Shown here: positions 14,966-42,561 of the stretch, in pieces | Layout: every line of letters starts with the position of its first letter | Numbering within the stretch: position 1 is the first letter of the stretch | Assembly: GCA_965116955.1 (NCBI GenBank) | Contig: OZ220742.1 | Location: 3,038,542 to 3,102,541, forward strand | Direction of reading: 5' to 3' | Source of the DNA: Thermoanaerobaculia bacterium | Lineage (GTDB): Bacteria; Acidobacteriota; Thermoanaerobaculia; Multivoradales; Multivoraceae | DNA length: 64,000 bases | Program-made: the position numbers and the translations under genes | The notes under the pieces: generated by a model | What the model was told of the DNA's origin: nothing | The model's input: only the letters and a program-made list of their open reading frames with translations | The model's database searches: none

Positions 14966-15577
14966 GTGAAAGAGGTTGTCGCGCAGGCACACGACATCGG
15001 CGACCTGTACGGCCTGTTCGGCCGGCGGGCGCCGGAGGCCGTGGTCGTATCGCGGGCTGCCGTTCCGCGGCCCCAGCGTGATCTCCTGGATCACGAGGAC
15101 CACATGACGGTCACCCTGGAGGCTCACCACGGTGACCTGGTCGACGTCGAGGTCCTGGATCGCGTTGCGTACGACGGGCGCTACGCGCGGAGGATCCTCC
15201 TGCGCCGGGCTACGGGCCCTGAGTGCGCACCGTCGCCGAAATCGGGCGCCGTCGTCATGTTCGGCATCGTGCTCCTGGACCTTCGCTTCGCGACGGAAGG
15301 CGCGCGGCGCGAGATCCTCGGCGAGTCGACGCCGCTCGGTCATGTGCTGATCCGGCACAGTCGTTTGCGGCGGATCAGCACTCACTGTCTGCTGGAGATC
15401 GAGCCGGACGAGGAACTTCGCCGGCACTTCGGTCTGGGCGCCTGCGTCACGGGAGAGGGCGGACGGTCGCGGGTCCATGGCCGCCTGGCGACGATCTTCT
15501 GTGACGAGCAGCCGGCGGTCGAACTACTGGAAGTGGTGCCTCCCGGCCCGGCCGCCGCGTCTTCGCCCCCGACCTGA
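14966..15577 (+). CDS. chorismate pyruvate-lyase-like (UbiC/DUF98 fold) protein; start uncertain
   Basis: Collinear resemblance to E. coli UbiC blocks: HMTVTLEA vs SMTKRFEQ, LGESTPLGHVLI vs LGKTPLGRYLF, GRSRVHGRL vs GRRSRLRL. GTG 14966 is the first plausible start after the rnd stop. Confidence 0.45.
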   Translation: MKEVVAQAHDIGDLYGLFGRRAPEAVVVSRAAVPRPQRDLLDHEDHMTVTLEAHHGDLVDVEVLDRVAYDGRYARRILLRRATGPECAPSPKSGAVVMFGIVLLDLRFATEGARREILGESTPLGHVLIRHSRLRRISTHCLLEIEPDEELRRHFGLGACVTGEGGRSRVHGRLATIFCDEQPAVELLEVVPPGPAAASSPPT

Positions 15578-19733: not shown

Positions 19734-20354
19734 TTGCTTGATGAGCTGCCTACCCAGAGGAGCACGCGCAGGGTCTTCCGGCTGGCACGGGACCCGACGC
19801 TCGACCTCCTGACCGCACTCGGCCTCGACGCCGGGGCAGAGGCGGAGGTGAGAGAGGCGTTGGCTGCGATCCGCGGCGCAGCGTCTGCTGAGGAACTCTG
19901 CGAAGCGGTCTTCAGGCCCAAGCGACGGCTGCCGAGACGCACCCGCTACTCCGACGGCTCCTTTCCGGTCTTCTACAGTTCGCTGGAGCCTGAGACTGCT
20001 GAAGCCGAGATCAAACACTGGTTGCCGACGCTCCTGGGAAGGCCCGAGAAGCCCCGAACAGCGTACTACCGGCGTCTGGACTGCACGTTCTCGGGAAGCG
20101 AGAAGGACCTTCGGTCGAAGGCCTCCGAATGGCCGGACCTCGTCCACGAGACCGACTACACCTTCTGTAATCGGCTCGGCGCTGAGGCGCGTGAACTGGA
20201 AATCGATGGCTTGGTGGCTCCCTCGGCACGGCATGCAGGCGCAAACGTGCCGATCTTCAGGAGAGGGGCGATCGTGGAGGCGGAGTTGGGAGATGCGGTC
20301 GCCGTGACTTACGATCCGGCTTCGGGTGCCGTGAGCTTGACTGAGGGTTTGTGA
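19734..20354 (+). CDS. RES-domain toxin (MbcT/ParT family, NAD+-targeting)
   Basis: ~200 aa with spaced Arg...Ser...Glu (RTRYSDGSFPVFYSSLEPETAEAEI). Immediately downstream of the DUF2384 antitoxin, the canonical Xre-RES arrangement. Confidence 0.75.
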   Translation: MLDELPTQRSTRRVFRLARDPTLDLLTALGLDAGAEAEVREALAAIRGAASAEELCEAVFRPKRRLPRRTRYSDGSFPVFYSSLEPETAEAEIKHWLPTLLGRPEKPRTAYYRRLDCTFSGSEKDLRSKASEWPDLVHETDYTFCNRLGAEARELEIDGLVAPSARHAGANVPIFRRGAIVEAELGDAVAVTYDPASGAVSLTEGL

Positions 20355-20425
20355 GGTCAGAGCCGGAGGTGACACGGTGGGCTTTCGGGCAACCCGTTTC
20401 GACGATCTCGGGGAGGGTGTGAGGT

Positions 20426-27269: not shown

Positions 27270-29195
27270 CTACTCCGGCGTGTACCAGATCGGCGAGGAC
27301 CAGGCGCGTTCCTGGATCGTCGGTGAGATGTCGTGGCGGGGCTCGACGCCCTCACGCAGGGCGTCCCAGGTCGACCAGCGGCAGGTCGGGTTCTCGAGGA
27401 CGCGGACGTAGTAGAAGGCGCGCTTGGAGGCGTCGAAGTCGGGGTCCGTCCAGACGGCCTGCAGGGTGTCCGCCCCGGCGTCGTCGCTGATCTGGCAGGT
27501 GGAGAGGTCGACCGTGGCGCCGTTGTCGGGGCAACGGTGCGTGGCCGGGTCGACCTCGGCGCCGTCGGAGCAGGCCACGTCGTAGACCATCTCGGCGCCC
27601 TCGCCGTCGCTGGACCATCCCTTGATCACCTGCACGCGGTCGAGCGGCGCGGCCATCGAGTCCCTCATCGCCATGACCGCGAAGGTCGGCGCTTCGCCGA
27701 CATCGGTGGCCAGAAGGTCGCCGCCCATCGGCACGCCTTCGGCGTAGGCCCTGGTCAGGAACTCGGCATCGCCGAGGTCTTCGTCCGTGAAGTCGCCGGC
27801 GAAGAAGCGGACCATCATGCGCGGTCCGGACGTGCCGAATGTCTCCTTCCGCCGCATGGCGTCGAAGATCGCCTCGCGGGTGTTCTCCTCGGCCCAGACG
27901 CCGGCCAGGCCGGAGGCGCCCCAGGTGTAGTAGTAGGTGTCGCGGAAGGTGCGGCCCGAGCCGTCGTCGGTACGCGTTGCCGCGTCCGACTGCAGGGCTG
28001 CATCGCCCAGGGTCTGGTTGGCGCCGGTGCCGGGCACCGAACCCCGAAGTTGGGGGGTGGCGTCGAGGAGCCCGACCTTGGACCAGTAGTCGTCCTCCCG
28101 GAAGGCGCCGCCGGAGACGTGGGTGTCGCTGGCGCCGATGATGCCCATCTTGTACGGATTCGTCAGACCGCCGTCGGCGAGCCGGATGCCGCGGAGCAGC
28201 GCGTCGCGGACGTAACTGCCTTCCGGTTGGCTGAGGATCGTGGTCGCGATCTTGTACGGCATGATCTCGAAGTCGGCCCACTCGTCGTTGGGCGACAGCG
28301 CCGGATGGGTGTCCGACGTCCCCTTGACCTGGGTGATCTCGACGAGCGGCTCGTTGCGCATCCGTGTGTCGACGTAGCCTTCGTCGAGAGGATCGCCGTA
28401 GAACTTCTCCATCTCGAACATGCGGCCGCCGGAGCCGTTGGGGTTGTGCGGAATGGCGAGCGCGTCCATGCCGAGTTCCCGCCAGCCGTCCATCGCGGCC
28501 CAGAGATCCTCGGGGTTCTGCGAGTCGATCCGGCTGAACGGCGCGTCGGGGGCTTCGGAACCGCGAAAGACCACGTTGCGGTGCAGGTTGTCCCGCTCGT
28601 AGCCGGACGAGGTGTACTCGTAGGCGATGAACGTCGTGAAGTTCCCCGGATCGTTGTGCGCTTCGGCCGCCTCGATGATCTTGGACCAGGCGTCCCGGAC
28701 GACGTCCAGGTTGAGGTGCTCGTCCTCGCCCTGCCGGGCGCCCAGGTAGGGCCGCATGCCGACGAAGATGCCGCGGCGCTCGTCGGCCTCCTCGGCCGCG
28801 CGCATGTCGGCGGCGATCGGATGCCCGTAGGCGGGCGAACCTTCCTCCGTCATCGCCGGCAGCATCCCCAGGTACATGCCGTGGTCGGTCACGCCCTGGA
28901 AGTCGAGCGGCCGGTCGAGCGTCATGTCGAAGCCGGCGGGGTGCTTGATCGTGCCGCCCTTGGCGAACTCGTAGGCGTCGTTCGGGTCGGTCGTCGTGCC
29001 GAAGATGAAGGCGTCGAACGAGTAGCGGGTGTGGACGTGCAGGTCGCCGAAGTACGCGTTCTTCGTCGGGTTCGGTTCTTCGGCGGTCCCGACAGTCGCT
29101 TCGCCTCCGTCTGCAGCCTCCTCGCTGGGAGCGCATGCGGCAATCAGGAAGGCGGAGAACGCGGCCACCGCCGCAACCATCGTCAGCTTCTTCAT
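27270..29195 (-). CDS. DUF3604-family lipoprotein (PHP-like metal-dependent hydrolase fold)
   Basis: GDLHVHTRYSFDA motif and ~640 aa length. Lipobox LIAAC after MKKLTMVAAVAAFSAF. ATG at 29195 is preceded by an AAGGAGA RBS. Confidence 0.75.
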   Translation of the reverse strand: MKKLTMVAAVAAFSAFLIAACAPSEEAADGGEATVGTAEEPNPTKNAYFGDLHVHTRYSFDAFIFGTTTDPNDAYEFAKGGTIKHPAGFDMTLDRPLDFQGVTDHGMYLGMLPAMTEEGSPAYGHPIAADMRAAEEADERRGIFVGMRPYLGARQGEDEHLNLDVVRDAWSKIIEAAEAHNDPGNFTTFIAYEYTSSGYERDNLHRNVVFRGSEAPDAPFSRIDSQNPEDLWAAMDGWRELGMDALAIPHNPNGSGGRMFEMEKFYGDPLDEGYVDTRMRNEPLVEITQVKGTSDTHPALSPNDEWADFEIMPYKIATTILSQPEGSYVRDALLRGIRLADGGLTNPYKMGIIGASDTHVSGGAFREDDYWSKVGLLDATPQLRGSVPGTGANQTLGDAALQSDAATRTDDGSGRTFRDTYYYTWGASGLAGVWAEENTREAIFDAMRRKETFGTSGPRMMVRFFAGDFTDEDLGDAEFLTRAYAEGVPMGGDLLATDVGEAPTFAVMAMRDSMAAPLDRVQVIKGWSSDGEGAEMVYDVACSDGAEVDPATHRCPDNGATVDLSTCQISDDAGADTLQAVWTDPDFDASKRAFYYVRVLENPTCRWSTWDALREGVEPRHDISPTIQERAWSSPIWYTPE

Positions 29196-29232
29196 CGGCT
29201 TCTCCTTAACAGGCGTGTCGAAGCAGTCTACT

Positions 29233-29247
29233 ATTGCGTACCGCAAT
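29233..29247. promoter_or_regulatory. perfect 15-bp palindrome ATTGCGTACCGCAAT (6-3-6) in the 98-bp divergent intergenic region between the two DUF3604 genes
   Basis: Read directly from the sequence. Candidate shared operator. Confidence 0.4.
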
Positions 29248-29293
29248 CGCTGTTTGAGTTTCTTTCTCTCCGGATCGTGAAGGGAGGTTCGCT

Positions 29294-31879
29294 GTGCGGA
29301 AACTGACGGACGGACTCGTTCTTGTCCTGGTGGGCGTCCTGGCGGCCGCATCTCCGGGTCTGAGCGCCGAGTTGGACCCCGAGCTCAGGGCTCGCGTCGA
29401 CGCGTTGATCGCGGATGTCGCCGAAGCTCCGACCACCGTCTCGAATGTCGCCGAGCGCACTCCGGTTCTGTGGGAATGGGCGAACGCCGTCTCCCTTCAG
29501 GGTGGGTTCGTACCCAAGAACCTGCCCCTCGTTGCGTTCTTCGGACCGTTCCCGCGACCGGGGACGGAACCCTCGCCGTTCCAGTTGGCGTCGATGGACG
29601 ACTACGTTCGGCAGCTTGCCTGGCTGGAGGAGGACGAGGAAGCGCTCGGCACCGTGACGCGGACCGGGTCCGAGGTGTTCGAGGCACGCAGTTGGGTGAC
29701 CCTCGAGGTCGTCTACATGGTCGGGTCGCTCGGCATGGAGGAGGGCGGCGGGATCGTGATCTCGACGCAGGGCGCTGGCGGCTACGGCCGGCTGCAGACC
29801 ACGGATCCCGCCGGCGATCACTACGTCTCCGCCCGGGTGAGCCGGGAAGGCATCAGCCTGGAGCAGGATGCGCACCCGATCTGGGGCCCGTACGGCGGCT
29901 TCCGCGGTCCGGCCGGTTTCCCGACTCTTCGGGTTCGCGGCGGGAATCTCTCGCCGGGCGACACGATCACGTTGACCTACGGAGACCGGAGCGGTGGCGG
30001 CCGCGGTCTCGGCATCGGCGAATTCAGCAACGACCGGATCTCCCTGCCCATTCACGTCGACCCGGGCGACGGCAGGGTCTACGAGATGCCGCCGGCGACG
30101 TACGAGGTCGTGGGCGGCGCGGCGGAGCGGTTTCACGGCTTCGCCCCGTCCATCGTCGGCACCGGCGAACCCTTCGTCATCTCGGTGCGCGCTGAGGACC
30201 GGGTCTACAACCGCGCGACCCGGGACATTCCGGGCCTGCAGGTACTGCTCGACGGCGAGCAGGTGGCCGAACTGCCGGCCGGGCAGGCGATCCACCTGGT
30301 GGAGCTGTTGGCCGACGCGGAGGGCGTCCACCGCTACACCTTCCGCAGTCCGGACGGCGAGGTGACCGGCGCAGCCAATCCGGTGTGGGTGCGGGCGGAT
30401 CCCGAACACCGCCTCTACTGGGGCGAGACTCACGGTCACTCCGGCTTCGCCGAGGGCCAGGGCACGCCGGAGGGCTACTTCACCTTCGCCCGCGACGATG
30501 CCCGTCTCGACTTCATCACGATGAGCGAGCACGACATCTGGCTGACGGACGGGCTGTGGGAGGAGTTGAACGAGGCGGTCCGGGAGTTTCACCGCGAGGG
30601 CGAGTTGCTGGTCTTCGCCGGTTACGAGTGGACGTCGCCCCGCCAGCGCGGGGGTCACCACAACGTGTTCTTCCGGAACGTCGGCATGCAGCGGGTGGGC
30701 GTGCAGGCGGCGCCGAACCTCTCCGACCTCTATCGCGGCCTGCGCGCCGAGTACGACACGGACGATGTCCTGATCATCCCTCATGCCCACCAGAACGGGG
30801 ACTGGCGCCAGAACGACTTCGAGATGGAGAACCTGATCGAGATCATGTCCGGCCACGGCACCTTCGAGTGGTTCGGCAGCCGTTACCTGGAACAGGGCTT
30901 CCGGGTCGGCTTCGTGTCCGCGTCGGACGACCACCGGGGCCACCCCGGATACTCGCCCGGCCACCAGGCCGGCGCCTCCGGGCGGCGATCGAACATCTTC
31001 CAGTTCGGCGGTCTGGCCGCGGCCTGGGCGCCGGCGCGCACCACGGACGCCGTCTTCGGCGCGCTCAAGGCGCGCCACGCCTACGCGACGACGGGCGCGC
31101 AGCGCATCGTGCTCGACGCCCGGCTGAACGGTGCGGTGATGGGGAGCGAACTGGATCAGACGGATCGCCGGGTGCTCGAGGGACGGGCGATCGGCACGGG
31201 GCCGATCCGCCGGGTCGACCTGATCCGCAACGGCGAGGTCGTGGCGACCTTCGACACGCGCGGCGCCGGTGGTTCGGCGCTGCCGGAGGGTCAGTTCGAG
31301 GCCCTGGTCAGCTTCTTCTCGGAGACCTGGGTCGACATCCGGGACAACCCGCGGGGCCAGCGGCCGTGGCGGGGTACGGTGACGGTGGAAGGGGCGAAGC
31401 TGGTCAGCGGTCGTCTGACCGGGACGCCGCTGCCGGCGGATACCTTCGGGGTCGACGGGAACGCGGCCAGCTTCGACTTCACGACCCGGGGTTCGCGGCG
31501 GTCCTTCGCGCTGGTGCTGGAGGGCGATCCGGCGGCGGCGCGGCTCAGCCTGGAGGTCGCGGCCGCCGTCGAGTACGGTACCGCGCCGACCCAGGTGCGC
31601 ACGCCGCAGCAGTTCGCTGCCGCGGAGTTCACGCTGGCCCTTCCGGCCGCGCCGGGGACGTCGGCCGCCGCCCGCGGCGGCAATGAGCACGTGTTCCACC
31701 AAGGCGACTACCGCGACAGCGTTCGCGTCGACTTCCTCGAGGGCCTCCGCGACGACGTCACCTTCCGCTTCACCGACTTCGGCGAAGAGGAAGACTGGTA
31801 CTACCTTCGCGTCGAGCAGATCGACGGCCACCTCGCCTGGTCCAGCCCCTGGTGGGTCGGCGGCGAGAAGCCACGCTAG
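29294..31879 (+). CDS. DUF3604-family secreted protein, long paralog
   Basis: WGETHGHSGFAEG and IIPHAHQNGDW His-rich metal motifs, plus a signal peptide. GTG start is preceded by a GGGAGG RBS. Confidence 0.75.
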   Translation: MRKLTDGLVLVLVGVLAAASPGLSAELDPELRARVDALIADVAEAPTTVSNVAERTPVLWEWANAVSLQGGFVPKNLPLVAFFGPFPRPGTEPSPFQLASMDDYVRQLAWLEEDEEALGTVTRTGSEVFEARSWVTLEVVYMVGSLGMEEGGGIVISTQGAGGYGRLQTTDPAGDHYVSARVSREGISLEQDAHPIWGPYGGFRGPAGFPTLRVRGGNLSPGDTITLTYGDRSGGGRGLGIGEFSNDRISLPIHVDPGDGRVYEMPPATYEVVGGAAERFHGFAPSIVGTGEPFVISVRAEDRVYNRATRDIPGLQVLLDGEQVAELPAGQAIHLVELLADAEGVHRYTFRSPDGEVTGAANPVWVRADPEHRLYWGETHGHSGFAEGQGTPEGYFTFARDDARLDFITMSEHDIWLTDGLWEELNEAVREFHREGELLVFAGYEWTSPRQRGGHHNVFFRNVGMQRVGVQAAPNLSDLYRGLRAEYDTDDVLIIPHAHQNGDWRQNDFEMENLIEIMSGHGTFEWFGSRYLEQGFRVGFVSASDDHRGHPGYSPGHQAGASGRRSNIFQFGGLAAAWAPARTTDAVFGALKARHAYATTGAQRIVLDARLNGAVMGSELDQTDRRVLEGRAIGTGPIRRVDLIRNGEVVATFDTRGAGGSALPEGQFEALVSFFSETWVDIRDNPRGQRPWRGTVTVEGAKLVSGRLTGTPLPADTFGVDGNAASFDFTTRGSRRSFALVLEGDPAAARLSLEVAAAVEYGTAPTQVRTPQQFAAAEFTLALPAAPGTSAAARGGNEHVFHQGDYRDSVRVDFLEGLRDDVTFRFTDFGEEEDWYYLRVEQIDGHLAWSSPWWVGGEKPR

Positions 31880-31885
31880 CTAGGT

Positions 31886-32300
31886 GTGACGGAGGCGGCC
31901 GGACTCTACGTCCACATCCCGTTCTGTTCGGCGATCTGCCCGTACTGCGACTTCGCGGTGGTGCGTGGAGGCGAGACGGATCGGGAGCGGTTCGTTGCCG
32001 CTCTTGACAGGGAGATCGAGGAACGTGGTTCAAATGCGGATGAAGGCGGATTCGCCGGCGGGCGGGCCGGTCTTCGAGGCTGCCGGGTTCGACACGGTGT
32101 ACTTCGGGGCGGTACGCCGTCGGCATTGAGCCTCGAGCAGCTTGGGGCGATTCGGCGGCGGTTGGTCGGGACGTTCGCGATCGATCCGGAGGCTGAGTGG
32201 CCGATCGACGTGAATCCGGAGGATGCGTCGGCTGAGGCTGGCGGGGTGGCGGGAGCTTGGCTTCGACCGGATCAGCCTGGGGCTGAAGGCTCTGGACGCG
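31886..32300 (+). pseudogene. degraded duplicate of the hemW 5' end (radical-SAM CX3CX2C region), about 90% identical by eye to 38686-39100; frameshifted and truncated
   Basis: Nucleotide-level alignment by eye with the intact hemW start: same YVHIPFCSAICPYCDF block, about 1 substitution per 10 nt, a 1-nt deletion near 32110. Homology ends at about 32290, where a transposase fragment begins. Confidence 0.7.
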
Positions 32301-32641
32301 CTGCGGACATCACCTACATTCCGGTCCGTTCAGGCTTCCTGTACCTGGTGGCGGTGATGGACGCCGGGATCAGAATCATGATGGACGGCCGCGGCCGCTT
32401 CTTCGACAACATCTTCATCGAGCGCCTCTGGCGCTCCCTCAAGCACGAGGCGGTCTACCCGCACGAGTTGGCCTCGGGCCTCGAGGCCCGAGGCATCATC
32501 GGCGGATGGATGGCCTTCTACAATGACGAAAGGCGGCACACGGCGCTCGGCCGTAGCACGCCTGCCGAGGCACACCGCCGACTGATCGGCATTCCGCAGA
32601 ATCGACAGTTTTCCACAGCCCCGGCGGCGGCTGCGGCGTGA
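32291..32641 (+). mobile_element. IS3/IS481-family DDE transposase (rve integrase core) remnant, 5'-truncated and internally deleted
   Basis: DITYIPVRSGFLYLVAVMD (first catalytic Asp region) is fused directly to C-terminal FDNIFIERLWRSLKHEAVY...YNDERRHTALGRSTPAE. The middle of the core is missing. Confidence 0.6.
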
Positions 32642-32746
32642 TCAGACCATGAAGCACACTCTTAGTTAGCTCCGCCCCGAAACTGTCCAAAAGAACCGGG
32701 ACCACCTCTAAACGACCCGGGTCTCATAACGGATCCAAGTCGCTCG

Positions 32747-35700
32747 CTACTGATCTGGGACAATACCAACATTCCCTGCTGACGACATGAACAAAGTGCC
32801 AAAGGTCCCTCTATCCGACTCCAATCCTCCTGGTCTCAATGCCTCTCTACTGCCGAGTTGATCTTCCGGGATGAAGCCGGACGCAGCCACATTCTTCGCA
32901 CCATCGATCCAAAACCAGGCACCTGGCTTCAAGTTCCTGACCTCTAACCTCCCGCCGCGGTAAGCGCCGGTCCTCCTGAAGCAGAACGCTCTTTCGATCC
33001 GGCCGCTCACCGTGCCCGTTGGATCAGCGTAGAAAGTGTTCCAGCTATGAGTGTTCCCACAGACGACCTTGACTCTCACCGGTTTCCCCGGATCTGCCGC
33101 TTCTCCTACGAAACCTCCGGCACCGCCCCAATACGGCGCTACGTACAAAGGATCCTTCTGTTCCAGCTCCTTGCTGTGAACAATGATGGCCGACACTCCT
33201 GAAACATGAGTGAGAAAACTAGCATATCTTCCAACATCCGTTTGGACCGCGTTCGGAACGAACGCCGGCACATCCCCATCAAGATGATCCTTGCAGACAA
33301 GAGGAGCCACGGCCACTCCGTTCTTCGGGGTCTGAATCCAGTACCAGCCGTTGTCTTGAATGCCAGCAAACGAAACAGTGCCGCGTCGGGCACGACCCTC
33401 CCGGTCCCGGCAAAAAGGCAGGTCGACCAACCTGACGATCATTCGTTGGCGATTGTCGCCAATGAACTCGTCTGAGACGTGCCTCCGAAAACCACAAGAT
33501 ACCGTGACTTCGGCAGAGGTGTTCCCGCCTTCCGGCCTGATGACGAATCCGCCGTTACCCCTCCAATAAGGAGTCACATGCGCCGTGCGACATTCCGAAG
33601 TGGCATAGACACCATCGTCGTCCTCCTCGTGATCAGTTGGCGGCAAAGGCGGAAGAGGATCTCGCTCAGGGGGCAATGGACGCGGAACTGCTGGGGGAGA
33701 GCCCTTGATATGACCGAAGATCGTCAAGTTCCATGAGTTCAGGGTGGAGGCGGCATCGGGATCATGGCGTTCATCGCGAATACGAAGTCGCCAAACACCG
33801 TTGGCAGTCTCCCCAATGTGCCTGGCGCTGCCTGTTCGCAGAAAGCCGTCGACCGCGACTTCAGGAGGATAGCCGATGTCAGGTTGCAGTTTGACCGGAA
33901 CGGTGAGGACCGAAACGGCGCCTGAGGGAGACTCGAGTTCCATGCGAAGGTGGCGGAGAGTCTCTGACTGGAGCTCCATCTCGATTGCAACGAACTCTAT
34001 AAAATCAATGCTGGAGTCCGCGATTGTGATCGTGTTTACAAGACCGAACGCAGAATCGCGATTCGCCGTATCGCCCAGTGGAAGAAAAACGCCCGGAGTT
34101 GGAGCGACCCCGATGTCCGCATTGGGAATAGTGAGACTGAGATTGTCATTGGAAGAGTAGGTGCCCTCGATCATCGCGCCCACACGGCCTCTGCGCTCCC
34201 AGTCCTCTGCCAGTTCGATAGCTGCTTCTAGATCGACAAGGCCGTAGCCGTACTTGTGGCTGAACCGGTACTGTTCGGACGGCGAGCCATACTTTCCTGC
34301 GCCTACAGCCCAGTTACCGTCTACCAAGCCGGCCTGCGTGGCCGATCCTGCGAGAATGAGCCGCACGTCCCTCCACATACACCGATGGCAAGCCTGGCGA
34401 ACGAGCGCGGCTACTCCCGAGACGAGCGGCGCCGATCCTGAGGTGCCGTTGAATGTCTTCACATACCTACTGTAGGGCCATGTCGTCATCAAAGCCGGAT
34501 CAGGGGCAGGGGGATCGACATCAGAGCCAGCGTGTGGGTCCTTCTGGGAAGGTGCACAGAGAAGAAGATTGGAGCCGAACTGCGAATAGGATGCTACTTC
34601 TCCGTCTTCTCCTACAGCGCAGATGGCCGCCACTCCATAGTAACTCGCCACCTCACTCAGGTTGGAGTAGGCCAGGTCCGCCGCACCCGCCCGATCGTTG
34701 CCGCCGGCAAACACGTAGAAGACACCCTTCCCGCCATAGCCCCGGGACACACCGAGGTCAATCGCCTTGCGCCAGATAGCATCGGACAGTGCCGGACCCG
34801 TAAATCCGATCCGGCCAGGACCCCAACTGTTGTTGGAAACCGCAGCTGTGCGAACGTTAATCAACATCGACTCTGCAGCGCCGAGGGCTGTAGAATTGGC
34901 ATCGAGATAGTTGACGCCGAATAGTTTGGCCCGAGGTGCAACACCTCGGCTTCCGAAGGAGTTGTCTCGAGCTGCGATCAGGCCCGCGACCTGTGTGCCG
35001 TGATTAGCCCATAAGCCGAGCAGATTGCCGTCGCCACTGTAGTCTAAGCTCAAGTCTTTTTCGACGTTCTGAACGAGGTCCGCGTGCTGCAGATCGAGAC
35101 TGTCATCCACTACTCCTACCAAGATTCCCTCGCCTCTATACGTGTTCCAGGTGTCACCCACGGAGATATCAATGCCAGATCCGGTATTACTCAAATGCCA
35201 CGCGCAGCCCGCATAGGGATCCGAGAGAAGTGTGGGCGGGCACCCGTCAAGGAACCGTTGGGAAACATCTACGATGCCCAGAATCGCGTAGTAGTACTCC
35301 CGTCCAACGCTTCGGGGGAAGACCCGCACGGAGTAGGCGCCGGCGTCAAGGAGCGCCGTAATCGTGAATCCGCTCGGACCTTTGTGCCAAAAAGGTTGGT
35401 CGTAGTGAACACGACCAACGGGGCGACCAACGGAGTCGGTCATCACGGCATCCACGACGCCTCCGTGAGAAAAGCCCCTAATGAAGACTGCTTCCCTTTC
35501 GGTTAGGATGAACTCGTACCGAGTACCAGGTCCAACTGCTCTCGTCCTACCGACGAAAGGGCGCCCAAAGTAGCCGAAGAGCGTTCCCATATCCAAAGTG
35601 CGAGAGGCAAGTTCGAGGTTCTGGGCAGTCATATACACAACGGTTGGATACGCATTCTCGGCTCCGCCAGTAGTCCCACCTCTCCTAAGACGCAAAAAAT

Positions 35701-36913
35701 ACGTACCAGGCGCGAGCTCACCGTACAAGTACGGTCTGCCATAGCTAGATGAGAACAAATCAGATTCGCCTCCTAAAAGAGCGTTCTGGTCCTCGTCGTC
35801 GGCCAAGGAGTCTGCTGCCGGGCAGCAGTCGCTTTCGGAGTAGACTGCAATCCTCATACGTGCCCGATTCCATGCACTAATCAACACGGCTGTCTGCTCC
35901 TCGATGACGAAGCGGAACCATTCATCATCAAGTCCGAACTGAACCTCCACCGGCTTTCCGTCCACCAACTTGATGTGGTTCAGCATCGAGCCTGCGGACG
36001 TGTTCATTGCCGGCACATCGAAGTAGAGGTCCCCAGGCCGATCGGAATTTGTATCACACTCGGCCTCCTCTGACGGAAAATCCGGAAAGTCCCGCCAGGT
36101 CAGGTCGGCATGACCGAACTCGTAGATCCAAACGGTGTACGCACCTGGACGAGATGCGGGTGCATCGGGATCGGACGCAACCTGAAAGTGAAGAGTCCCC
36201 GTGAAAGAACCCGTGGTTTTGAAGTAGAGGAGGGCGTCGTTGTACTCGCCGTCAGGGACCCGCGCGTCAAAGATGGGAAGTGATAGACTCAGAGGTGGCG
36301 GAGGAGGAATGGCGGGGTCTGGAGCCTCGAGTATGTTCCATTTGAGGACTTCCGGCAGTGAGAGGCCGAGCCTGCCTGTTGTCATGATTGCGAGGCATCG
36401 GGTTCCGTCGACGTCAAACTGATAGTGATCGACATCGCTCGAAGAAGACAAGAATCCTGCAATGGGAACGCCAATTGGAACCGGAGTGGCATTGCGAATG
36501 TTGGCGATGTATTGCTCCAGTTCTGCCGGCGGAGGGAGAGTCTCCGGGAGGCCGGCGGAGTCGCCTGGCGTTGTCCGTGCAAGAGTGGACCAGGCGCCGG
36601 AGCCAGAACCGGATATCGCCCGAACCTGGACGCGATACTCGATCGCATTCTCTAGGCCAGATAGAAGCTCGTACAGGACGTTGCCATGCGTGCGGTTTCC
36701 TACGCCAACGATGTGTGTCCAGTTCGTACCGCTATCGGACGAGTACCGAAGTTCATGTGTGAGATTTGCTTGATCAGGCGTAGTCCACGTGACGGAGAGA
36801 GACCGCTCACCCTTCCAAAGCTCGACATCAGTGGGTGGTGGCGGCTGAGTACGAGCCAGAGATGCGGTCATTGTGAACATGATGAGGAGGAGGCAGATGA
36901 GCTTTGGCATCAC
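32747..36913 (-). CDS. 1388-aa secreted multidomain S8 subtilisin-family peptidase (signal peptide, FN3, about 3 PPC-like domains, S8 catalytic domain, P-domain-like, 2 C-terminal repeats)
   Basis: Catalytic triad motifs VGVVDDS, NHGTQVAG, GTSGSAPLVSG. FN3-like N-terminus. D.Y.F / D.WFRF PPC-like repeats. Repeated PYW.G.GGFV C-terminal modules. Visibly lower GC and different codon usage than the flanks. Confidence 0.8.
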   Translation of the reverse strand: MMPKLICLLLIMFTMTASLARTQPPPPTDVELWKGERSLSVTWTTPDQANLTHELRYSSDSGTNWTHIVGVGNRTHGNVLYELLSGLENAIEYRVQVRAISGSGSGAWSTLARTTPGDSAGLPETLPPPAELEQYIANIRNATPVPIGVPIAGFLSSSSDVDHYQFDVDGTRCLAIMTTGRLGLSLPEVLKWNILEAPDPAIPPPPPLSLSLPIFDARVPDGEYNDALLYFKTTGSFTGTLHFQVASDPDAPASRPGAYTVWIYEFGHADLTWRDFPDFPSEEAECDTNSDRPGDLYFDVPAMNTSAGSMLNHIKLVDGKPVEVQFGLDDEWFRFVIEEQTAVLISAWNRARMRIAVYSESDCCPAADSLADDEDQNALLGGESDLFSSSYGRPYLYGELAPGTYFLRLRRGGTTGGAENAYPTVVYMTAQNLELASRTLDMGTLFGYFGRPFVGRTRAVGPGTRYEFILTEREAVFIRGFSHGGVVDAVMTDSVGRPVGRVHYDQPFWHKGPSGFTITALLDAGAYSVRVFPRSVGREYYYAILGIVDVSQRFLDGCPPTLLSDPYAGCAWHLSNTGSGIDISVGDTWNTYRGEGILVGVVDDSLDLQHADLVQNVEKDLSLDYSGDGNLLGLWANHGTQVAGLIAARDNSFGSRGVAPRAKLFGVNYLDANSTALGAAESMLINVRTAAVSNNSWGPGRIGFTGPALSDAIWRKAIDLGVSRGYGGKGVFYVFAGGNDRAGAADLAYSNLSEVASYYGVAAICAVGEDGEVASYSQFGSNLLLCAPSQKDPHAGSDVDPPAPDPALMTTWPYSRYVKTFNGTSGSAPLVSGVAALVRQACHRCMWRDVRLILAGSATQAGLVDGNWAVGAGKYGSPSEQYRFSHKYGYGLVDLEAAIELAEDWERRGRVGAMIEGTYSSNDNLSLTIPNADIGVAPTPGVFLPLGDTANRDSAFGLVNTITIADSSIDFIEFVAIEMELQSETLRHLRMELESPSGAVSVLTVPVKLQPDIGYPPEVAVDGFLRTGSARHIGETANGVWRLRIRDERHDPDAASTLNSWNLTIFGHIKGSPPAVPRPLPPERDPLPPLPPTDHEEDDDGVYATSECRTAHVTPYWRGNGGFVIRPEGGNTSAEVTVSCGFRRHVSDEFIGDNRQRMIVRLVDLPFCRDREGRARRGTVSFAGIQDNGWYWIQTPKNGVAVAPLVCKDHLDGDVPAFVPNAVQTDVGRYASFLTHVSGVSAIIVHSKELEQKDPLYVAPYWGGAGGFVGEAADPGKPVRVKVVCGNTHSWNTFYADPTGTVSGRIERAFCFRRTGAYRGGRLEVRNLKPGAWFWIDGAKNVAASGFIPEDQLGSREALRPGGLESDRGTFGTLFMSSAGNVGIVPDQ

Positions 36914-37431
36914 ATCTTGTCCAACTGAAGCAGCCAGTTCGGCGACGCAATGGCGACGCCCTCGTGTATCGCGAGCTTGTTGGCCAGATCGAGGGTTTCG
37001 TGAATCGTGGGCTTTGTGGGGATAATGAAACTATTGGGCATCCAGTCGAGAGCCTTGGCATCAGATAGTCCATGAGCGATGAGGAACGCACGGACTCTTT
37101 CGTTGGTCCAGTCGGCGTCCAACACGAGAATGACCCCTCCGACTAACGCTCTCAGGTTTCCCGCAGAGTCCTGAAAGACGGGATTCGAACGTGAAGGCTC
37201 TTTAGTAGGCGACGTGGCGCTCGGATGAGCTGAAAGGGGGGCGTCCGTTGTTGCTTTGGCGATTCTCAGCTTTCCGTTCTTCGATTTCTCGACGAGGTAG
37301 TCCCTTTGTAGAACGATGCGGATCTGACGACTACCGTCATAGTAGAAGTATGCAGGATCGTGTGGCTCTTGTGCTAAGAGTGGGTTTTGAAGGAGGGAGA
37401 GGCTCAGGATTGCGAGGGGCAGTACCTTCAT
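36910..37431 (-). CDS. small secreted protein, C-terminal part resembling subtilisin propeptide/inhibitor I9 fold; translationally coupled to the S8 peptidase (ATGA overlap)
   Basis: Signal peptide MKVLPLAILSLSLLQNPLLAQ. C-terminal LVLDADWTNERVRAFLIAHGLSDAKALDWMPNSFIIPTKP...LANKLAIHEGVAIASPNW fits the I9-like pattern (inference). ATG at 37431 is preceded by a GAGGAAA RBS. Confidence 0.5.
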   Translation of the reverse strand: MKVLPLAILSLSLLQNPLLAQEPHDPAYFYYDGSRQIRIVLQRDYLVEKSKNGKLRIAKATTDAPLSAHPSATSPTKEPSRSNPVFQDSAGNLRALVGGVILVLDADWTNERVRAFLIAHGLSDAKALDWMPNSFIIPTKPTIHETLDLANKLAIHEGVAIASPNWLLQLDKM

Positions 37432-37699
37432 ACGTCTTTCCTCGGCCACCAGAACGGTGCTCAGCGGGTTCATCGAGCAGCGTTGGTTGGGAGTGTGCGC
37501 GGAGAGCGAGTGGTGCAAGGGTTGTGTGTCCGCGAGGATCCGATGTCAGGCAACGGGCGGTGGCATGCTCGTTTGAGGCGAGTGTGGCACATTTATGCGA
37601 AAGAAGCGCGAAGGAAAGGGCGTGAAAGGCGACTGGAGTGTGAATAGAGGGCGCACGTTGTTGGTCGCTAGCCTGAAGCTGGTCGGTCGGCGACCCAGG

Positions 37700-38595
37700 C
37701 GGGGCAGGCAGGCCTCGAGGCCGCGGAGCCAAGGGTCTGCCGGGTCCTTCGCGAGCGGTCGGTGGAGGCGAGCCCAACGAGAACGTGCCGCAAGTAGGAC
37801 GAGCGCGGAAGCGAGAGGATCGCAAAGGCAGGGCCCGCAGCGCCGTCACGGCACCCACTGGAGCAGGCGCCGCCTGGCAGCGAAGCTCGGCGTTTCCCAG
37901 ATGACGATCGCGCGGCTGTGGCGCAAGCACGGTCTGCGGTCTCATCGGCTCCATCGGTACATGGCGCCCAACGACCCGGACTTCGAGAAGAAGACGGCTG
38001 AGATCATCGGCCTGTACGTGAATCCACCCGTCCACGCGGCGGTGTTCTGTGTGGACGAGAAGACCGCGATTCAGGCTCTGGATCGCAAGGACCCGGTGCT
38101 GCCGCTGTCCCCGGGTCGTGCAGAGCGTCACGGCTTCGAGTACCGGCGCCACGGGACGGTGTCGCTGCATGCGGCGTTCAACACGGACACCGGCGAGGTG
38201 GTGGGCGAGACGGCGCCTCGGCACACGTCCGAAGAGTTCGTGGCCTTTCTCGGCGAGTTAGTGGCTCATCACCCCAAGGGGCAGGAGATCCCGTCATCGT
38301 GGACAACTTCTCCGCGCACAAGACCGCCAAGGTGGCCAAGTTCCTCGACGCTCATCCCAACGTCCACATGCGCTTCACGCCAACCTACTCGTCCTGGCCT
38401 AATCAGGTCGAACTCTGGTTCGGGAAGATCCAACGCGATGTCATCGCCAGGGGCGTGTTCACGTCCGGCGCCGACCTGCGACGAAAGCTGATGCGTTACG
38501 TCCGCGAATACAACAAGAAAGCCAAGCCCGTGAAGTGGAAATACACCAATCCGTCAAGACGACTTAGTGCCGAAACCCAAGTTACAGTCGACTAG
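37700..38595 (+). mobile_element. IS630 (Tc1/mariner)-family transposase pseudogene: degenerate N-terminus and a 1-nt frameshift near 38285
   Basis: LGVSQMTIARLWRKHGL HTH, FCVDEKTAIQALDRK (first D), then a frame change between HHPKGQEIP and VIVDNFSAHKT (second D), then FTPTYSSWPNQVELWF (E region). Confidence 0.65.
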
Positions 38596-38683
38596 GAGCC
38601 GATCGTCGGCGCGAGAATCCGGGGTTCCTTGCCAGGGATGAGGAGCACGATTGGGGCGGTAGGGTTCAATGGTGAGGAGCGGG

Positions 38684-39844
38684 ATGGGTGTGAGGGAGGC
38701 AGCCGGGCTGTACGTCCATATCCCGTTCTGTTCGGCGATCTGTCCGTACTGTGACTTCGCCGTGGCGCGGGGTGGCGAGGCGGATGGGGAGCGGTTCGTT
38801 GCCGCTCTTGACAGGGAGATCGCTTCCTGGGCGGGTAGATCGGAAGAGGGCTTCGGGACCAGCCGCTTCGACACGGTGTACTTCGGAGGCGGTACTCCCT
38901 CGGCGTTGAGTCTGGAGCAGCTTGGGGTGGTTCGGCGGCGGTTGGTCGGGACGTTTGCGATCGATCCGGAGGCGGAATGGACGATCGAGGTGAATCCGGA
39001 GGATGCTTCGGTTGAGGGGCTGGCGGGGTGGCGGGAACTTGGTTTCGACCGGATCAGCCTGGGGCTGCAGGCGCTGGATGATCGGGCGTTGCGCTTTCTC
39101 GGCCGCAGGCACGATGCGGCTGCGGCGCGGTTGAGCGTCGAACGGGCGCGGGAGGCGGGCTTCCGGTCGGTGTCGGTCGACCTGATCTACTCCCTGCCCG
39201 GCTTCGATGGCGGCTGGTGGCTTCGGACGCTGGACGAGGCGGCGGCGCTCGGGCCGGATCACATCTCCTGCTACGAACTGACGATCCACGACGGGACGCC
39301 GTTCGGGCGGCGGCGGGACGCGGGCAGGTTGCGGGAAACCGGCGAGGACGAGCGGGCCGCCAACTTCGTGGCTACCCACCGTCGCCTCGCGGGGCTTGGC
39401 TACGAGGGGTACGAGGTCTCGAACTTCGCGCGCCGCGAGGCGGATCGGAGCCGCCACAACCGGAAGTACTGGCGGCATCAGCCGTACCTGGGGCTGGGAC
39501 CTTCGTCGCACTCCTTCGCCGGTCGCAGCCGGTCGTGGAACGTGGCGCCTTGGAGGGACTGGAGCGACGCGGTGGCGGGCGGCGGCTCGCCGGTTGCCGG
39601 TCGGGAGGAGTTGACGGACGATCAGTTGCTGCTGGAAGCCGTGATGATGGGACTTCGCCAGCGCTCCGGCATCGACTGCGCCGCCCTGGAACGGCGTTTC
39701 GGGATCGACCCGGCAGCCGGCAACGCCGGGCGGATCGAAGCCTGGGAGAAAGCGGGCTGGCTTCGTGTGCGCGATCGTCGCCTGGAGCCGACCCTCGAGG
39801 GCATGGCCCGGGCCGACCGCTTGGCGAGGGAGTGGAGCCTCTAG
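38684..39844 (+). CDS. hemW: radical SAM heme chaperone HemW (coproporphyrinogen III oxidase-like)
   Basis: CSAICPYC radical-SAM motif, 387 aa, HemN-like C-terminal domain. Intact reading frame. Confidence 0.85.
   Translation: MGVREAAGLYVHIPFCSAICPYCDFAVARGGEADGERFVAALDREIASWAGRSEEGFGTSRFDTVYFGGGTPSALSLEQLGVVRRRLVGTFAIDPEAEWTIEVNPEDASVEGLAGWRELGFDRISLGLQALDDRALRFLGRRHDAAAARLSVERAREAGFRSVSVDLIYSLPGFDGGWWLRTLDEAAALGPDHISCYELTIHDGTPFGRRRDAGRLRETGEDERAANFVATHRRLAGLGYEGYEVSNFARREADRSRHNRKYWRHQPYLGLGPSSHSFAGRSRSWNVAPWRDWSDAVAGGGSPVAGREELTDDQLLLEAVMMGLRQRSGIDCAALERRFGIDPAAGNAGRIEAWEKAGWLRVRDRRLEPTLEGMARADRLAREWSL
38686..39100 (+). repeat. direct repeat partner (inside intact hemW) of the degraded copy at 31886-32300
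   Basis: See pseudogene entry. Identity estimated by eye only. Confidence 0.65.
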
Positions 39845-41490
39845 CGGAACACGGACGCTTCGAGTTCCACGTCGGCGCTCTGCCACGCATTCACGAAGCG
39901 CTCTTCCACTTCGTTCGCTTCCTGGTTCCGGTCCTGCGCGCGCAGCGCCGTAGCAAGGCCGAACAGGGACCAGCCGTTGTGCGGGTTGTGTTCCAGGTCG
40001 CGGCGGTAGACGGCCTCGGCCTCGGTGGGCCGCCCGGCTTCGAGCAGCACGGCGCCGAGGGAGTGCCGAACGGGGTAGTGGAAGGACGGCGGTTCGGCGT
40101 AGCGGAAACTGTCCTGGAGGGCCACGGCCGAGCGCATCTCGTCGATCGCCCGGCCCATCCGGCCTCGTGCCGCCTGGATCTCGCCGGCCAGCAGGTGTTC
40201 GGTCAGGCGCACCAGGTCGGAACCGGTGGCGAAGGAGATGCGCAGGTCCGAGAGCTCGGGGCTCCTCCGCAGTTTGGCGAGTGCCCTGAGGTGCCGTCTG
40301 GCGCCGCGCGGATCGCTGGTCGCGGCCAGGGCCAGACCCTGGGCGTAGTGCCACATCGCGGTCTGGAAGGTCTGGCCGGCGGGAGGCCGCGGCGTGTCGA
40401 GGACCTCCTGCCAGCGGCCGAACCGGACCCGTGCGAACAGGGGCGTCGCGAGGTAGTTCTGGAGGAAGGCGAGGGTCGGTGCGAGTTCGGCGGGGACTTC
40501 CTCTGCCAGGTTGTCGGCGCTCTCGATAGCGAGTTCGGCGCGGCCGCCGAAGGTCGCCGATGCCCACAGGAAGTGGATGTTGTGGGGGTAGTAGGCGACC
40601 GGGTAGAGCCCCTGGGCGTTGCACTGGGCGATGTAGTCGATGTCGGCGGCGATCGCGCGCTGGTTCGACGTCACGGCGTCGTCGTATCGGCCGACGCGAA
40701 TGTAGATGTGGGCCGGCATGTGGACCAGGTGGCCGGCGGCCGGCATGAGCTTGCCGAGAGCGTCGGCGCTTGGCTCGGCGAGCTGCGGTTCCCGGGCTTC
40801 CATCAGGTGGATGTAGTAGTGGTGGGCGCCCGGGTGGTCCGGATGGGCCGCGATCACCCGCTCGAGGAGTTCCTTCGCTTCCAGGGTTCCCGGCTGCGGC
40901 TCACCGCCGCGCCAGTAGTCCCAAGGCATCGTGTTCATGATCGCCGCGGCGTGCAGGGTGGCCGCTTCCGGGTCGTCCGGGAACCGCTTCGCGACCGCCG
41001 CGATGGCGTCGACCCACGCCGCGTCGAACGCCGGGCGGTCGGCGTCGTCGTCAGTGGAGTAGCGGCTCGCCAGAGCATCGATCAGAGCCTGCTCACGCTC
41101 GTTCCCGCTGGTGCGCCGTCCCTGTGCCTGCTCGAGGCTCTCCAGCGCCTGGAGTTCGCGCTCGCGCGGCATCGAGTCGTTCAGGTTGCGGCCCAGGGCC
41201 AGGGCCTTGCCCCAGTGCGGCATCGCTGCCTCCGGATCGCGCCGCGTCGCCTCCTCGAAGGCCCGTATGGCTTCGGCGTGGTTGAACGCGTAGACGAGGC
41301 GCAGCCCCTGGTCGAAGAACCGCTGCGCCGCCTCCGACGACGTAGTGATGGGGTAGTGCAGGTCGCCCAGGCCCTCCAGCACCGGTGCGAGCGGTTCTCC
41401 GGCGTCGCCGGCCGTGATGGCCGGGACGCCGATCACCGGAATCGTGAACGCGACGATGACGGTTCGCATGAGTCGTGTGCTGGTCCTCAT
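39841..41490 (-). CDS. periplasmic tetratricopeptide (TPR) repeat protein
   Basis: Signal peptide at the internal Met (MRTSTRLMRTVIVAFTIPVIGVPA), then repeated A..A..YY/W...G...A TPR-like helices. Stop overlaps the hemW stop (convergent). Start is inferred. Confidence 0.65.
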   Translation of the reverse strand: MRTSTRLMRTVIVAFTIPVIGVPAITAGDAGEPLAPVLEGLGDLHYPITTSSEAAQRFFDQGLRLVYAFNHAEAIRAFEEATRRDPEAAMPHWGKALALGRNLNDSMPRERELQALESLEQAQGRRTSGNEREQALIDALASRYSTDDDADRPAFDAAWVDAIAAVAKRFPDDPEAATLHAAAIMNTMPWDYWRGGEPQPGTLEAKELLERVIAAHPDHPGAHHYYIHLMEAREPQLAEPSADALGKLMPAAGHLVHMPAHIYIRVGRYDDAVTSNQRAIAADIDYIAQCNAQGLYPVAYYPHNIHFLWASATFGGRAELAIESADNLAEEVPAELAPTLAFLQNYLATPLFARVRFGRWQEVLDTPRPPAGQTFQTAMWHYAQGLALAATSDPRGARRHLRALAKLRRSPELSDLRISFATGSDLVRLTEHLLAGEIQAARGRMGRAIDEMRSAVALQDSFRYAEPPSFHYPVRHSLGAVLLEAGRPTEAEAVYRRDLEHNPHNGWSLFGLATALRAQDRNQEANEVEERFVNAWQSADVELEASVFR

Positions 41491-41550
41491 GGCGGTCAGA
41501 GTAACAGCGGCGGCCGATCGGCAGTAGCATCCGCTCCCGGTGGTTGAGGC

Positions 41551-42561
41551 ATGGCGCGAATCGCAGTTCTGACCGGAGGTTCGACGCCGGAGAGAACGGT
41601 CGCCCTGGCCGGGGCGGCCCAGGTCTCGGGCGCCCTGCGCGCCCGCGGCCACGAGGTCACCGTGTTCGACACGATCGAACCGGGAGCCCTGGACGCCGAA
41701 CTGGAACGGCAACGCCTGGGCCAGACAATCGGCGCCCGCCCGCCGTCGCTGGCAGAGTTGCGCGAACTGGAGGCGCGGGAAGATCTGCCGGCGCTTGTCG
41801 CGGGCGAGCTCGGCGACCACGAGGCTGTCTTCCTCGTGCTCCACGGCCGCCAGGGCGAGGGCGGCGAAGTCCAGGAACTGCTGGAGGCCGCCGGCATCGC
41901 TTTCACGGGCAGCGATGCCCGCGGCAGCCGGCTGGCGATGGACAAGGACCGAAGCAAGCGTCGCTTCCGCGATGCCGGGATCCCGACTCCCGACTGGCTG
42001 ACCTGGCCGGCTCGGCAGTCCGACATCGAAGCACTCGGCTTGCCCCTGATCGTCAAGCCGTCACGGGTGGGCTCGACGGTCGGCCTGACCCTGATGTCGG
42101 ATCTCTCCGACCTCGACTCGGCAGTTGGCAAGGCCCTGACCTTCGACGATCAGGTGATCCTGGAGCTGTTTCTGCCAGGGCGCGAGTACACGGTCGGCGT
42201 GCTGGACGGCCAGGCCCTTGGCGTCGGCGAGATCGTGGCGCCCGGCGTGATCTTCGACTTCCACAGCAAGTACACCCCGGGCCGGGCCCGCGAGCTCTTT
42301 CCGGCCGGGATCGACCAGGACCTCGAGGACCGCTTCCGCGAACTCGCCCTCGCCGCCCACGAGGCTCTTGGACTCCGTGACTTCTCCCGCGTCGACTTCC
42401 GCCTGGACGCCAAGGGCTCTCCCTACTGCCTCGAAGTCAACACCCTCCCGGGCATGACGCCGACCAGCCTTCTTCCCCAGTCCGCCGCCGTCTTCGGGAT
42501 CTCCTTCCGGGACCTCTGCGACCGGATGGTCCGCGCGGCCCTGAAGCGCCTGGGCTCCTAG
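41551..42561 (+). CDS. ddl: D-alanine--D-alanine ligase
   Basis: ATP-grasp motifs and length. LHGRQGEGGEVQELLEAAGIAFTGS and EVNTLPGMT are typical of Ddl. Confidence 0.9.
   Translation: MARIAVLTGGSTPERTVALAGAAQVSGALRARGHEVTVFDTIEPGALDAELERQRLGQTIGARPPSLAELRELEAREDLPALVAGELGDHEAVFLVLHGRQGEGGEVQELLEAAGIAFTGSDARGSRLAMDKDRSKRRFRDAGIPTPDWLTWPARQSDIEALGLPLIVKPSRVGSTVGLTLMSDLSDLDSAVGKALTFDDQVILELFLPGREYTVGVLDGQALGVGEIVAPGVIFDFHSKYTPGRARELFPAGIDQDLEDRFRELALAAHEALGLRDFSRVDFRLDAKGSPYCLEVNTLPGMTPTSLLPQSAAVFGISFRDLCDRMVRAALKRLGS

Follow-up and report, generated by a model that had tools for sequence, protein, structure and literature searches.

Foreign protease cassette and a dead hemW fragment upstream of intact hemW in a sponge-symbiont acidobacterium: a probable scar of recombination-driven gene transfer

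We analysed a 64-kb window of contig OZ220742.1, which belongs to a sponge-symbiont Acidobacteriota genome; all coordinates are positions in this window. Immediately upstream of the heme-chaperone gene hemW, the window holds about 6.8 kb of foreign DNA, a dead hemW fragment included. From left to right, the dead fragment is followed by a remnant of an IS3-family insertion sequence (IS), the genes of an S8 protease and of a small partner protein, 421 nt, an IS630-family remnant, a spacer and the intact hemW. The features are as follows, with the two native flanking genes given last:

31883-32298, plus strand: dead hemW 5' fragment, codons 1 to about 137, class A long-loop allele
32299-32715, plus strand: IS3-family remnant, 5'-truncated and with an internal gap (NF033516, PF13683)
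32747-36913, minus strand: cargo gene 1, 1388-aa secreted kexin/furin-like S8 peptidase (PF00082, PF01483, PF00041)
36910-37431, minus strand: cargo gene 2, 173-aa secreted partner protein, with an alternative start at 37518; overlaps the S8 start by ATGA
37432-37852, no strand: 421 nt without assignment that separate the cargo operon from the IS630 remnant, GC 0.651, differing from the 55-57% of the cargo
37853-38594, plus strand: IS630-family remnant with one frameshift near 38272-38290 (NF033545 in two frames)
38595-38683, plus strand: remnant of the spacer upstream of hemW, as in spacer-type loci (alignment with relatives)
38684-39844, plus strand: intact hemW, class B short-loop allele (TIGR00539 at 214.8 bits, cut-off 205.4; PF04055 Radical_SAM and PF06969 HemN_C)
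29294-31879, plus strand: up861, 861-aa DUF3604/CehA-McbA-like metallohydrolase, native left flank (Pfam PF12228, NF038032)
39841-41844, minus strand: TPR protein, native right flank, convergent with hemW (TPR Pfam families), kept beside hemW in relatives

The segment between the two hemW copies is the sole strongly low-GC stretch of the window, with 0.555-0.62 per kb against approximately 0.68-0.70. The GC content of the cargo is 0.575 and that of both 20-kb flanks 0.68, while the GC content at third codon positions (GC3) is 0.61 in the S8 gene and 0.87-0.89 in host genes; the insertion of lower GC and different codon usage described in an earlier note, made from the sequence alone, was thus borne out. 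A mild GC dip (0.63-0.64 vs approximately 0.68-0.70) was also seen at 20001-24000. The 421 nt at 37432-37852 had no match in related loci or elsewhere in the window, and the N-terminus of the IS630 transposase was not detectable in them.

Self-comparison likewise upheld the bracketing direct repeats that the earlier note had put at about 90% identity by eye. The hemW 5' end is repeated at 31883-32298 and 38687-39080, with approximately 90% identity in alignable blocks, and gapped blastn of one copy against the other gave 191/212 identities (E 1e-76) and 123/136 identities (E 8e-49). Three ungapped blocks were delimited, 31883-32018/38687-38822 (90%), 32108-32237/38888-39017 (89%) and 32236-32296/39018-39078 (93%), and the middle of the repeat (32019-32075 vs 38823-38854) is unalignable, comprising 50 nt on the left and 25 nt on the right. 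The longest exact run between the copies, 36 nt, lies mid-repeat (31983-32018 = 38787-38822).

The left copy corresponds to the first 413 bases of hemW, and alignment against relatives extends its hemW homology to about 32298. Compared with the closest alleles (L001/2/7/9), it has gained 1 nt in the loop (+1) and lost 1 nt in a G run (-1) and 2 nt at a third site (-2), and it shows four amino-acid changes (A->V, T->P, E->D, Q->K) at sites that are invariant in 20 relatives. The open reading frame (ORF) 31886-32641 joins a HemW N-terminus, at only 46.5 bits to TIGR00539 (cut-off 205.4), to the C-terminus of an IS3-family transposase. By these features the left copy is a decaying hemW relic and no member of the HemW family; the hemW-rve ORF of 251 aa, as gene finders call it, is a fusion of two relics and no real gene. 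The copy had been described as frameshifted, truncated and abutting an rve fragment of IS3 or IS481 type, all of which stands except for the second family, since the ORF matches NF033516 at E 3.5e-20 and IS481 at E 8e-7 only, beside a match to rve_3.

On its left side the relic adjoins the stop codon of up861, as hemW does in L005/L008/L009, save for an extra CTAG. The junction of the up861 stop and the hemW start (31877-31885) reads GCTAGCTAGG, where L005/L008/L009 have GCTAGG, and this 4-nt CTAG duplication is unique to the source genome. CTAG also reads across the right junction of the IS630 remnant (...GAC then TA-G). IS630 elements prefer CTAG targets, and it is conceivable that the duplication at the up861 junction is an IS footprint.

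The right copy is, as noted earlier, an intact hemW: it carries the motif CSAICPYC (CxxxCxxC) and belongs to the HemW family, and its product is identical to database protein P0032. Its start codon is the ATG at 38684, inside ORF 38669-39844, and its repeat portion spans 38687-39080. As a correction to the earlier note, homology to the hemW locus extends a further 91 nt upstream of the repeat (38593-38683). These 91 nt before the right hemW are non-IS sequence and align with the up861-hemW spacer of many relatives. The motif GGCGGTAGGGT (38655-38674) is kept in this spacer; with blastn-short, at least 8 relatives gave a match to it at 35-50 nt before hemW. In the form GGCGGTAGGGT(T/C) it was observed in the spacer-type loci of L003, L004, L011, L015, L021, L022, L025, L029 and L072. 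It could be a promoter or regulatory element; a sigma-70 promoter scan upstream of the right hemW found none, such a scan being uninformative for this phylum. A match to the Rfam group II intron domain-5 model RF04357 spanning the hemW start (38674-38731, plus strand) was set aside as probably a chance GC-rich hairpin, being sub-threshold (28.4 bits vs 53, E 0.008).

In HemW proteins of L001-L031, the loop following the radical-SAM cysteine motif (codons about 45-65) is hypervariable, in length as well as in sequence, between species that share about 90% identity elsewhere. The alleles of this loop do not track the similarity of the flanking genes.

Neither transposase gene next to the copies is intact. 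The IS3-family remnant begins inside orfB at 'DITYIP' and reads '...DITYIP...VMD', followed by a gap and then by the last 70 aa, with the stop codon at 32639-32641; the left half of the element is absent, and only this core fragment of orfB and the C-terminal 70 aa are left. The latter cover positions 300-369 of the 369 positions of the NF033516 profile (E 2.6e-21, 76 bits vs a cut-off of 160). The last ~75 nt of the remnant align with 12245-12318 of the relative L079 and both sequences diverge after the same base, and therefore the terminus of the IS3 element was placed at 32715. The stop codon of the S8 gene lies 31 nt beyond this terminus.

The frameshifted IS630 transposase reported earlier was likewise found, in two frames over 37595-38595 that match NF033545 at positions 60-224 and 229-299. 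Tblastn of protein P0303 against the remnant covered aa 110-255 and 250-349, and the remnant is 84.5% identical at the nucleotide level to an intact element at locus L168, over the stretch that begins at locus position 848, about 360 nt into the element, and runs to the end of the element at 1591. Thus, the remnant has lost the left ~360 nt (left inverted repeat, helix-turn-helix and aa 1-108) and retains aa 109-349, split over two frames. It ends with ...CAGTCGAC, then TA (38593-38594), as at the ends of intact copies, and by this likeness the right end of IS630 is to be read as a genuine transposition junction. Deletion of the left end explains why a search for inverted repeats at the IS630 ends found nothing; alignment to intact relatives fixed the right one.

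Each IS remnant therefore retains its right end and has lost its left part, which places both novel junctions (about 32298/32299 and about 37852/37853) inside IS bodies, away from IS ends. The two remnants do not delimit a composite transposon, one being of the IS3 and the other of the IS630 family and each lacking its 5' part. Furthermore, no recombinase was found among the ORFs of the window with Pfam and NCBIfam, and all of 32299-38683 except for the 421 nt could be assigned. The different IS families, the joints off the IS ends and the missing integrase together exclude transposition of the block as a unit and make site-specific integration unlikely.

The region was compared with the orthologous loci of about 33 relatives found through the HemW protein, which are metagenome-assembled genomes (MAGs) labelled Candidatus Multivorans, Thermoanaerobaculia, Holophagales or Acidobacteriota, many of them apparently from sponges. 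In essentially all of them up861, hemW and the TPR gene are contiguous with no island between, and up861 lies directly upstream of hemW in about 30; in the source genome the intact hemW is now separated from this former upstream neighbour. The only match to the island among the relatives comprises 43-79 nt in L079. A metagenome scan with hemW as the query returned distant relatives only (best 80%), with no island-free allele and no donor. The claim that foreign DNA was inserted at the hemW 5' end is therefore supported, the insertion being absent from all related genomes. Two divergent DUF3604-family genes stand back to back upstream of hemW (27270-29351, minus strand; 29294-31879, plus strand), and this pair is kept in the annotation of the source contig (L163/L166). 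In the second of them, up861, a mosaic was observed: its 5' half is 93-97% identical to L003/L004/L006/L012 and 81-86% to L005/L009/L007, and its 3' half is about equidistant from both sets (87-95%).

The concern that the arrangement might be an artefact of assembly was addressed with independent contigs. A 4.58-Mb long-read contig (ENA ERZ25072196 ctg194530_31x_l; 31x according to the record name) contains the window without a difference. The short-read contig L081 of JGI (3300003175, 'SP3Tswi...') contains 31808-39083 in one piece with 3 mismatches (99.96% identity), and the Logan contigs L082 and L167 (SRR2157455 and ERR14375724) cover 31983-38816 and 29013-32012, breaking only within the 36-nt exact repeat. 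L081 and L082 have the same three single-nucleotide polymorphisms (SNPs) and hence probably derive from one sample, so that the independent datasets number at least two. Both junctions lie in unique sequence and not in shared repeats, both were reproduced in the long-read and in the independent short-read contigs, and an assembly chimera is effectively excluded.

The cargo consists of the 1388-aa S8 subtilase and the small minus-strand ORF already recognised in the earlier note. The protease is composed of a signal peptide, an fn3 domain, the S8 catalytic domain, a P-domain, and N- and C-terminal regions with no assignment. The catalytic domain is complete (PF00082 1-288 of 288, E 1.7e-34) with the triad D601/H638/S825 in the motifs VVDD601, HGT638 and GTSGS823, and PF01483 lies at residues 973-1065, which together make the protein a kexin/furin-like S8 subtilase. 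Its nearest solved structures in the PDB are kexin (1e-31), furin (1e-28) and Aeromonas ASP (2e-20). Pfam detected no I9 propeptide in it, and PADLOC returned only a generic subtilase match. The best homologue besides its own entry among 5.8 billion proteins shares 37% identity; the better ones among its matches come from the ENA assemblies ERZ2506-2507xxxx, whose accessions are near that of the source. The three SNPs between two datasets comprise 2 synonymous changes and 1 V486L, too few to infer selection.

The 173-aa partner has no match in Pfam or NCBIfam and none by sequence in the PDB, and its family, which counts 555 cluster representatives at E<=1e-3, carries no annotation; members of this family are regularly upstream of, or fused to, kexin-like S8 proteases. 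In L164 (L164:2879-3985, E 1e-24) and L165 (L165:1253-1555, E 6e-22), a homologue of the partner is encoded immediately upstream of an S8 homologue, and in protein P0240 the partner domain is fused N-terminally to S8 and P-domains. Adjacency and the one fusion support a functional link between the partner and the protease. The AF2 model (pLDDT 82) predicts a C-terminal beta-alpha-beta-beta-alpha-beta unit at residues 93-168, and the top Foldseek matches in the PDB, non-significant at E>=0.5, are POIA1, the prodomain chain 8c4x_B (TM 0.62) and the PCSK9 prodomain. The earlier view of this ORF as propeptide-like therefore finds backing in the predicted topology and in the adjacency and fusion to S8, and none in a family match or a significant Foldseek hit; on this basis the partner may be a trans-acting propeptide or chaperone. 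The best functional analogy for the pair appears to be that of Aeromonas sobria, whose ASP is described in PMC5638518 (citing Kobayashi et al. 2015) as a propeptide-deficient kexin-like protease requiring the separately encoded chaperone ORF2. The Aeromonas pair shares with the one found here a kexin-like S8 protease with a P-domain, no detectable I9 and an operon with a small secreted protein, and differs in that the partner gene is downstream in Aeromonas and upstream here; no homology between the partner and ORF2 was found. With ASP as a precedent, the partner becomes testable as an external chaperone or inhibitor. From its predicted domains, the cargo would equip the symbiont with a kexin-like secreted protease.

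The two hemW copies were also compared with each other in their substitutions. In 357 alignable positions they differ by 38 of these. Third codon positions hold 24 of them (binomial p=1.2e-4), and 23 are synonymous, where random change would make 26% so (p=5.6e-6). Most of the sites that differ between the copies are polymorphic among related species, and private changes number only 9 per copy; those of the left copy include the four radical replacements, and those of the right copy recur in a few relatives. Moreover, the loop is long in the left copy (class A, as in L001/2/7/9) and short in the right one (class B, as in L004/5/11). The upstream contexts differ as well, the left copy being of the adjacent type and the right copy of the spacer type. 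The third-position and synonymous bias, the different loop alleles and the different upstream contexts could not have arisen by duplication in situ with later decay, and the copies are xenologs, that is, alleles from different lineages that evolved as working genes and were joined thereafter.

The question which copy is resident was approached with informative sites, defined as those fixed differently between group I (L003/4/6/12, all of spacer type) and group II (L005/9/7/29) of the relatives. The ratio of group I to group II states was 45:4 in the left flank and the up861 5' half, 9:10 and thus mixed in the up861 3' half from about 30170, 2:11 in the left hemW copy outside the loop, 8:5 in the 5' end of the right copy, 7:4 in the rest of hemW and 25:14 in the right flank. 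By Fisher tests, the left copy stands apart both from the right flank (p=0.003) and from the right copy (p=0.04), and the right copy agrees with its flank (p=1.0); the right copy also keeps the spacer, as in all group I relatives. The dead left copy is thus the phylogenetic outlier and the right 5' end matches the genomic background, which mildly favours the left copy as the incomer. Two other signs were discarded: the step in GC3 from 0.77 in the 5' part of the right hemW to 0.87 in its remainder does not indicate foreignness, as about 30 relatives show the same drop, and nearest-relative logic fails because the relatives are star-like at 88-90% over about 18 kb, with both copies 88-92% identical to everything in the conserved blocks. 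Structure alone cannot decide the direction of exchange.

The foreignness of the insert, the empty sites of the relatives, the xenology of the copies, the anatomy of the IS remnants and the junctions off the IS ends are observed; the mechanism and direction of the recombination we infer. We consider it probable that the island was imported from a congener by homology-anchored recombination that needed no recombinase of its own. A two-gene cassette, already scarred by IS3 and IS630 elements, would have entered the up861-hemW junction horizontally from a congener about 10% divergent, by recombination and not by transposition or site-specific integration. In the version that we favour, the resident locus would have been up861, spacer and hemW (the present right copy), with an IS630 element inserted at a TA 91 nt upstream of hemW, and the incoming piece would have comprised the interior of the donor up861, a hemW broken at codon ~137, the IS3 scar, the S8 cassette and the 421 nt. 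The left crossover would have been homologous and inside up861, in its 3' half; an affinity shift near 30170 is a candidate for this border. On the right, the join would have been illegitimate and within the resident IS630; had the donor carried the same IS, homology could have served instead. Under this import model, the dead hemW fragment would be a hitch-hiking relic and the intact hemW the resident gene. That the left copy came with the island and the right hemW is wholly resident can be proposed only tentatively from the site counts.

Several points weigh against this version. The split between groups I and II was defined post hoc from the up861 pattern, and there are 13 sites per hemW copy. 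The relatives are star-like (88-90% over about 18 kb, none clearly closest) and themselves mosaic, and an older, unrelated recombination may therefore explain the group II-like hemW 5' end. The up861 3' half is mixed (9:10) and not clearly of group II. The version requires a donor with an already broken hemW, while hemW is intact in all well-assembled relatives. No donor genome with the cassette was found, homologues of the S8 protease reaching at most 37% besides itself.

The rival that survives best, which we regard as unlikely and nevertheless take seriously, is the reverse direction proposed in the earlier note, with the left copy as the resident 5' end and the IS3 scar, S8 cassette, IS630, spacer and donor hemW 5' end as the incoming DNA. 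Two routes would lead there, namely a homologous crossover in hemW beyond codon 137 with an illegitimate join at resident codon ~137, or a single (Campbell-type) crossover of a re-circularised fragment; a functional, chimeric hemW would have been restored by the incoming 5' segment, and the resident 5' end left to degenerate. The donor would need only a benign intergenic island before an intact hemW, which is exactly the arrangement given by the IS630 right end, the TA and the 91-nt spacer, and tolerance of a junction inside hemW would be explained. In addition, the left copy sits in the natural locus type of L005/L009, its indels fit decay after the event, and in E. coli re-circularised single crossovers gave partial duplications more often than true homology-facilitated illegitimate recombination (HFIR) (PMC3240628). 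Nonetheless, it is the left and not the right copy that departs from the background (2:11 vs 8:5, with flanks at 45:4 and 25:14), the GC3 drop of the right copy lends no help as relatives are alike, and an extra earlier recombination would be required to explain how a hemW 5' end resembling group II came to lie next to an up861 5' half resembling group I. Of the replacement 5' segment envisaged in the earlier note, the bringing together of different lineages thus stands, and its role as a replacement is doubtful, as a recombinase is absent and the outlier counts mildly favour the opposite assignment.

An integrative element that carried a site-specific recombinase and its own hemW 5' segment, with the recombinase later deleted and the repeats as attL and attR, appears improbable to us. 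It would account for direct gene-end repeats flanking a segment of foreign composition with the target gene intact, and L079 too has a partial foreign hemW copy beside its insert. However, the island holds neither a recombinase gene nor a piece of one, and all but 421 nt have an assignment; the left repeat ends against the middle of IS3 orfB and not at an element end; no identical core stands at the repeat boundaries, the longest exact run lying mid-repeat (36 nt); no tRNA gene was found in the window; and the cassette was seen at hemW in no other genome. Duplication of the hemW start in situ, whether IS-mediated, as the earlier note had offered as its second option, or by unequal recombination, with one copy decaying, is scarcely credible: IS remnants do adjoin both copies, but the copies diverged under purifying selection with a synonymous excess (p=5.6e-6) and shared polymorphisms, their loop alleles belong to different species sets and their upstream contexts to the adjacent and spacer types, and the IS are of different families. 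As improbable is a chimera assembled from two co-occurring strains, since although the source is a MAG and related strains coexist in sponges, the 4.58-Mb long-read contig, the JGI contig and the Logan contigs reproduce the unique junctions.

A second, different insertion next to hemW, on its opposite (3') side, was observed in L079, a more distant relative with a frameshift-rich assembly. At L079:9825-15754 a native-like hemW, 96% identical to that of the sister L031, is followed by about 3.5 kb with no assignment, then by a foreign hemW 3' fragment (14745-15417, 81% to its own hemW) and then by the TPR gene. This insert shares the 43-79 nt of IS3-type terminal sequence with 32630-32715 of the window. 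Its ORFs, which might be transposase debris, had no Pfam matches and matched IS481 only at E=0.04. The hemW borders may be a recurrent import site, for which two cases in about 34 genomes give no more than a lead. A further step, that they are a recurrent exchange point at which islands carry a hemW or up861 fragment as a portable homology arm, seems to us doubtful; if true, it would mean recombinase-free, homology-guided targeting of cargo to one locus.

Taken as a whole, the locus is best read as an ordinary scar that gene transfer by recombination left behind. Such events are known, no new type of mobile element is involved, and current concepts of mobile DNA are unchanged. It offers a clean example of cargo exchange among uncultured sponge symbionts through recombination anchored in conserved flanking genes, in which a dead gene fragment of foreign allele type would serve as a fingerprint of the donor.

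Among known systems, prophages and islands integrate into gene ends and bring a substitute end, as e14 does at icd and as islands do at tRNA genes. Such elements resemble the present locus in the gene-end repeats around foreign DNA and in the intact target gene, and differ from it in that this locus lacks an integrase, an identical att core and element termini; its repeat, moreover, is of a 5' end and 10% diverged, and one copy abuts the middle of an IS gene. Campbell-type integration of a circular or re-circularised molecule with an internal or 5' gene fragment, the principle behind suicide-plasmid insertion, would yield a truncated copy, inserted DNA and a full copy, with homology ending at the same position of the gene. 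It fits only the reverse direction, re-circularisation between the middle of IS3 and hemW codon 137 would be needed, and no replicon or circular form is known at this locus; in the E. coli study, single-crossover integration of re-circularised fragments was the commoner product and gave partial gene duplications (PMC3240628). The closest counterpart of the import that we favour is HFIR. The process takes its definition from Acinetobacter, S. pneumoniae and P. stutzeri, and E. coli served to test it (PMC3240628); it has also been invoked for arrays of orphan immunity genes in type VI secretion system clusters of V. cholerae and for orphaned Rhs 3' ends (PMC5361080). HFIR and the event proposed here have in common a one-sided homology anchor, a non-homologous second joint, the loss or displacement of resident DNA and the dead gene remnants left behind, and they differ in that the present event is read from sequence and its insert of about 6.4 kb exceeds the ~1 kb typical of the experiments.

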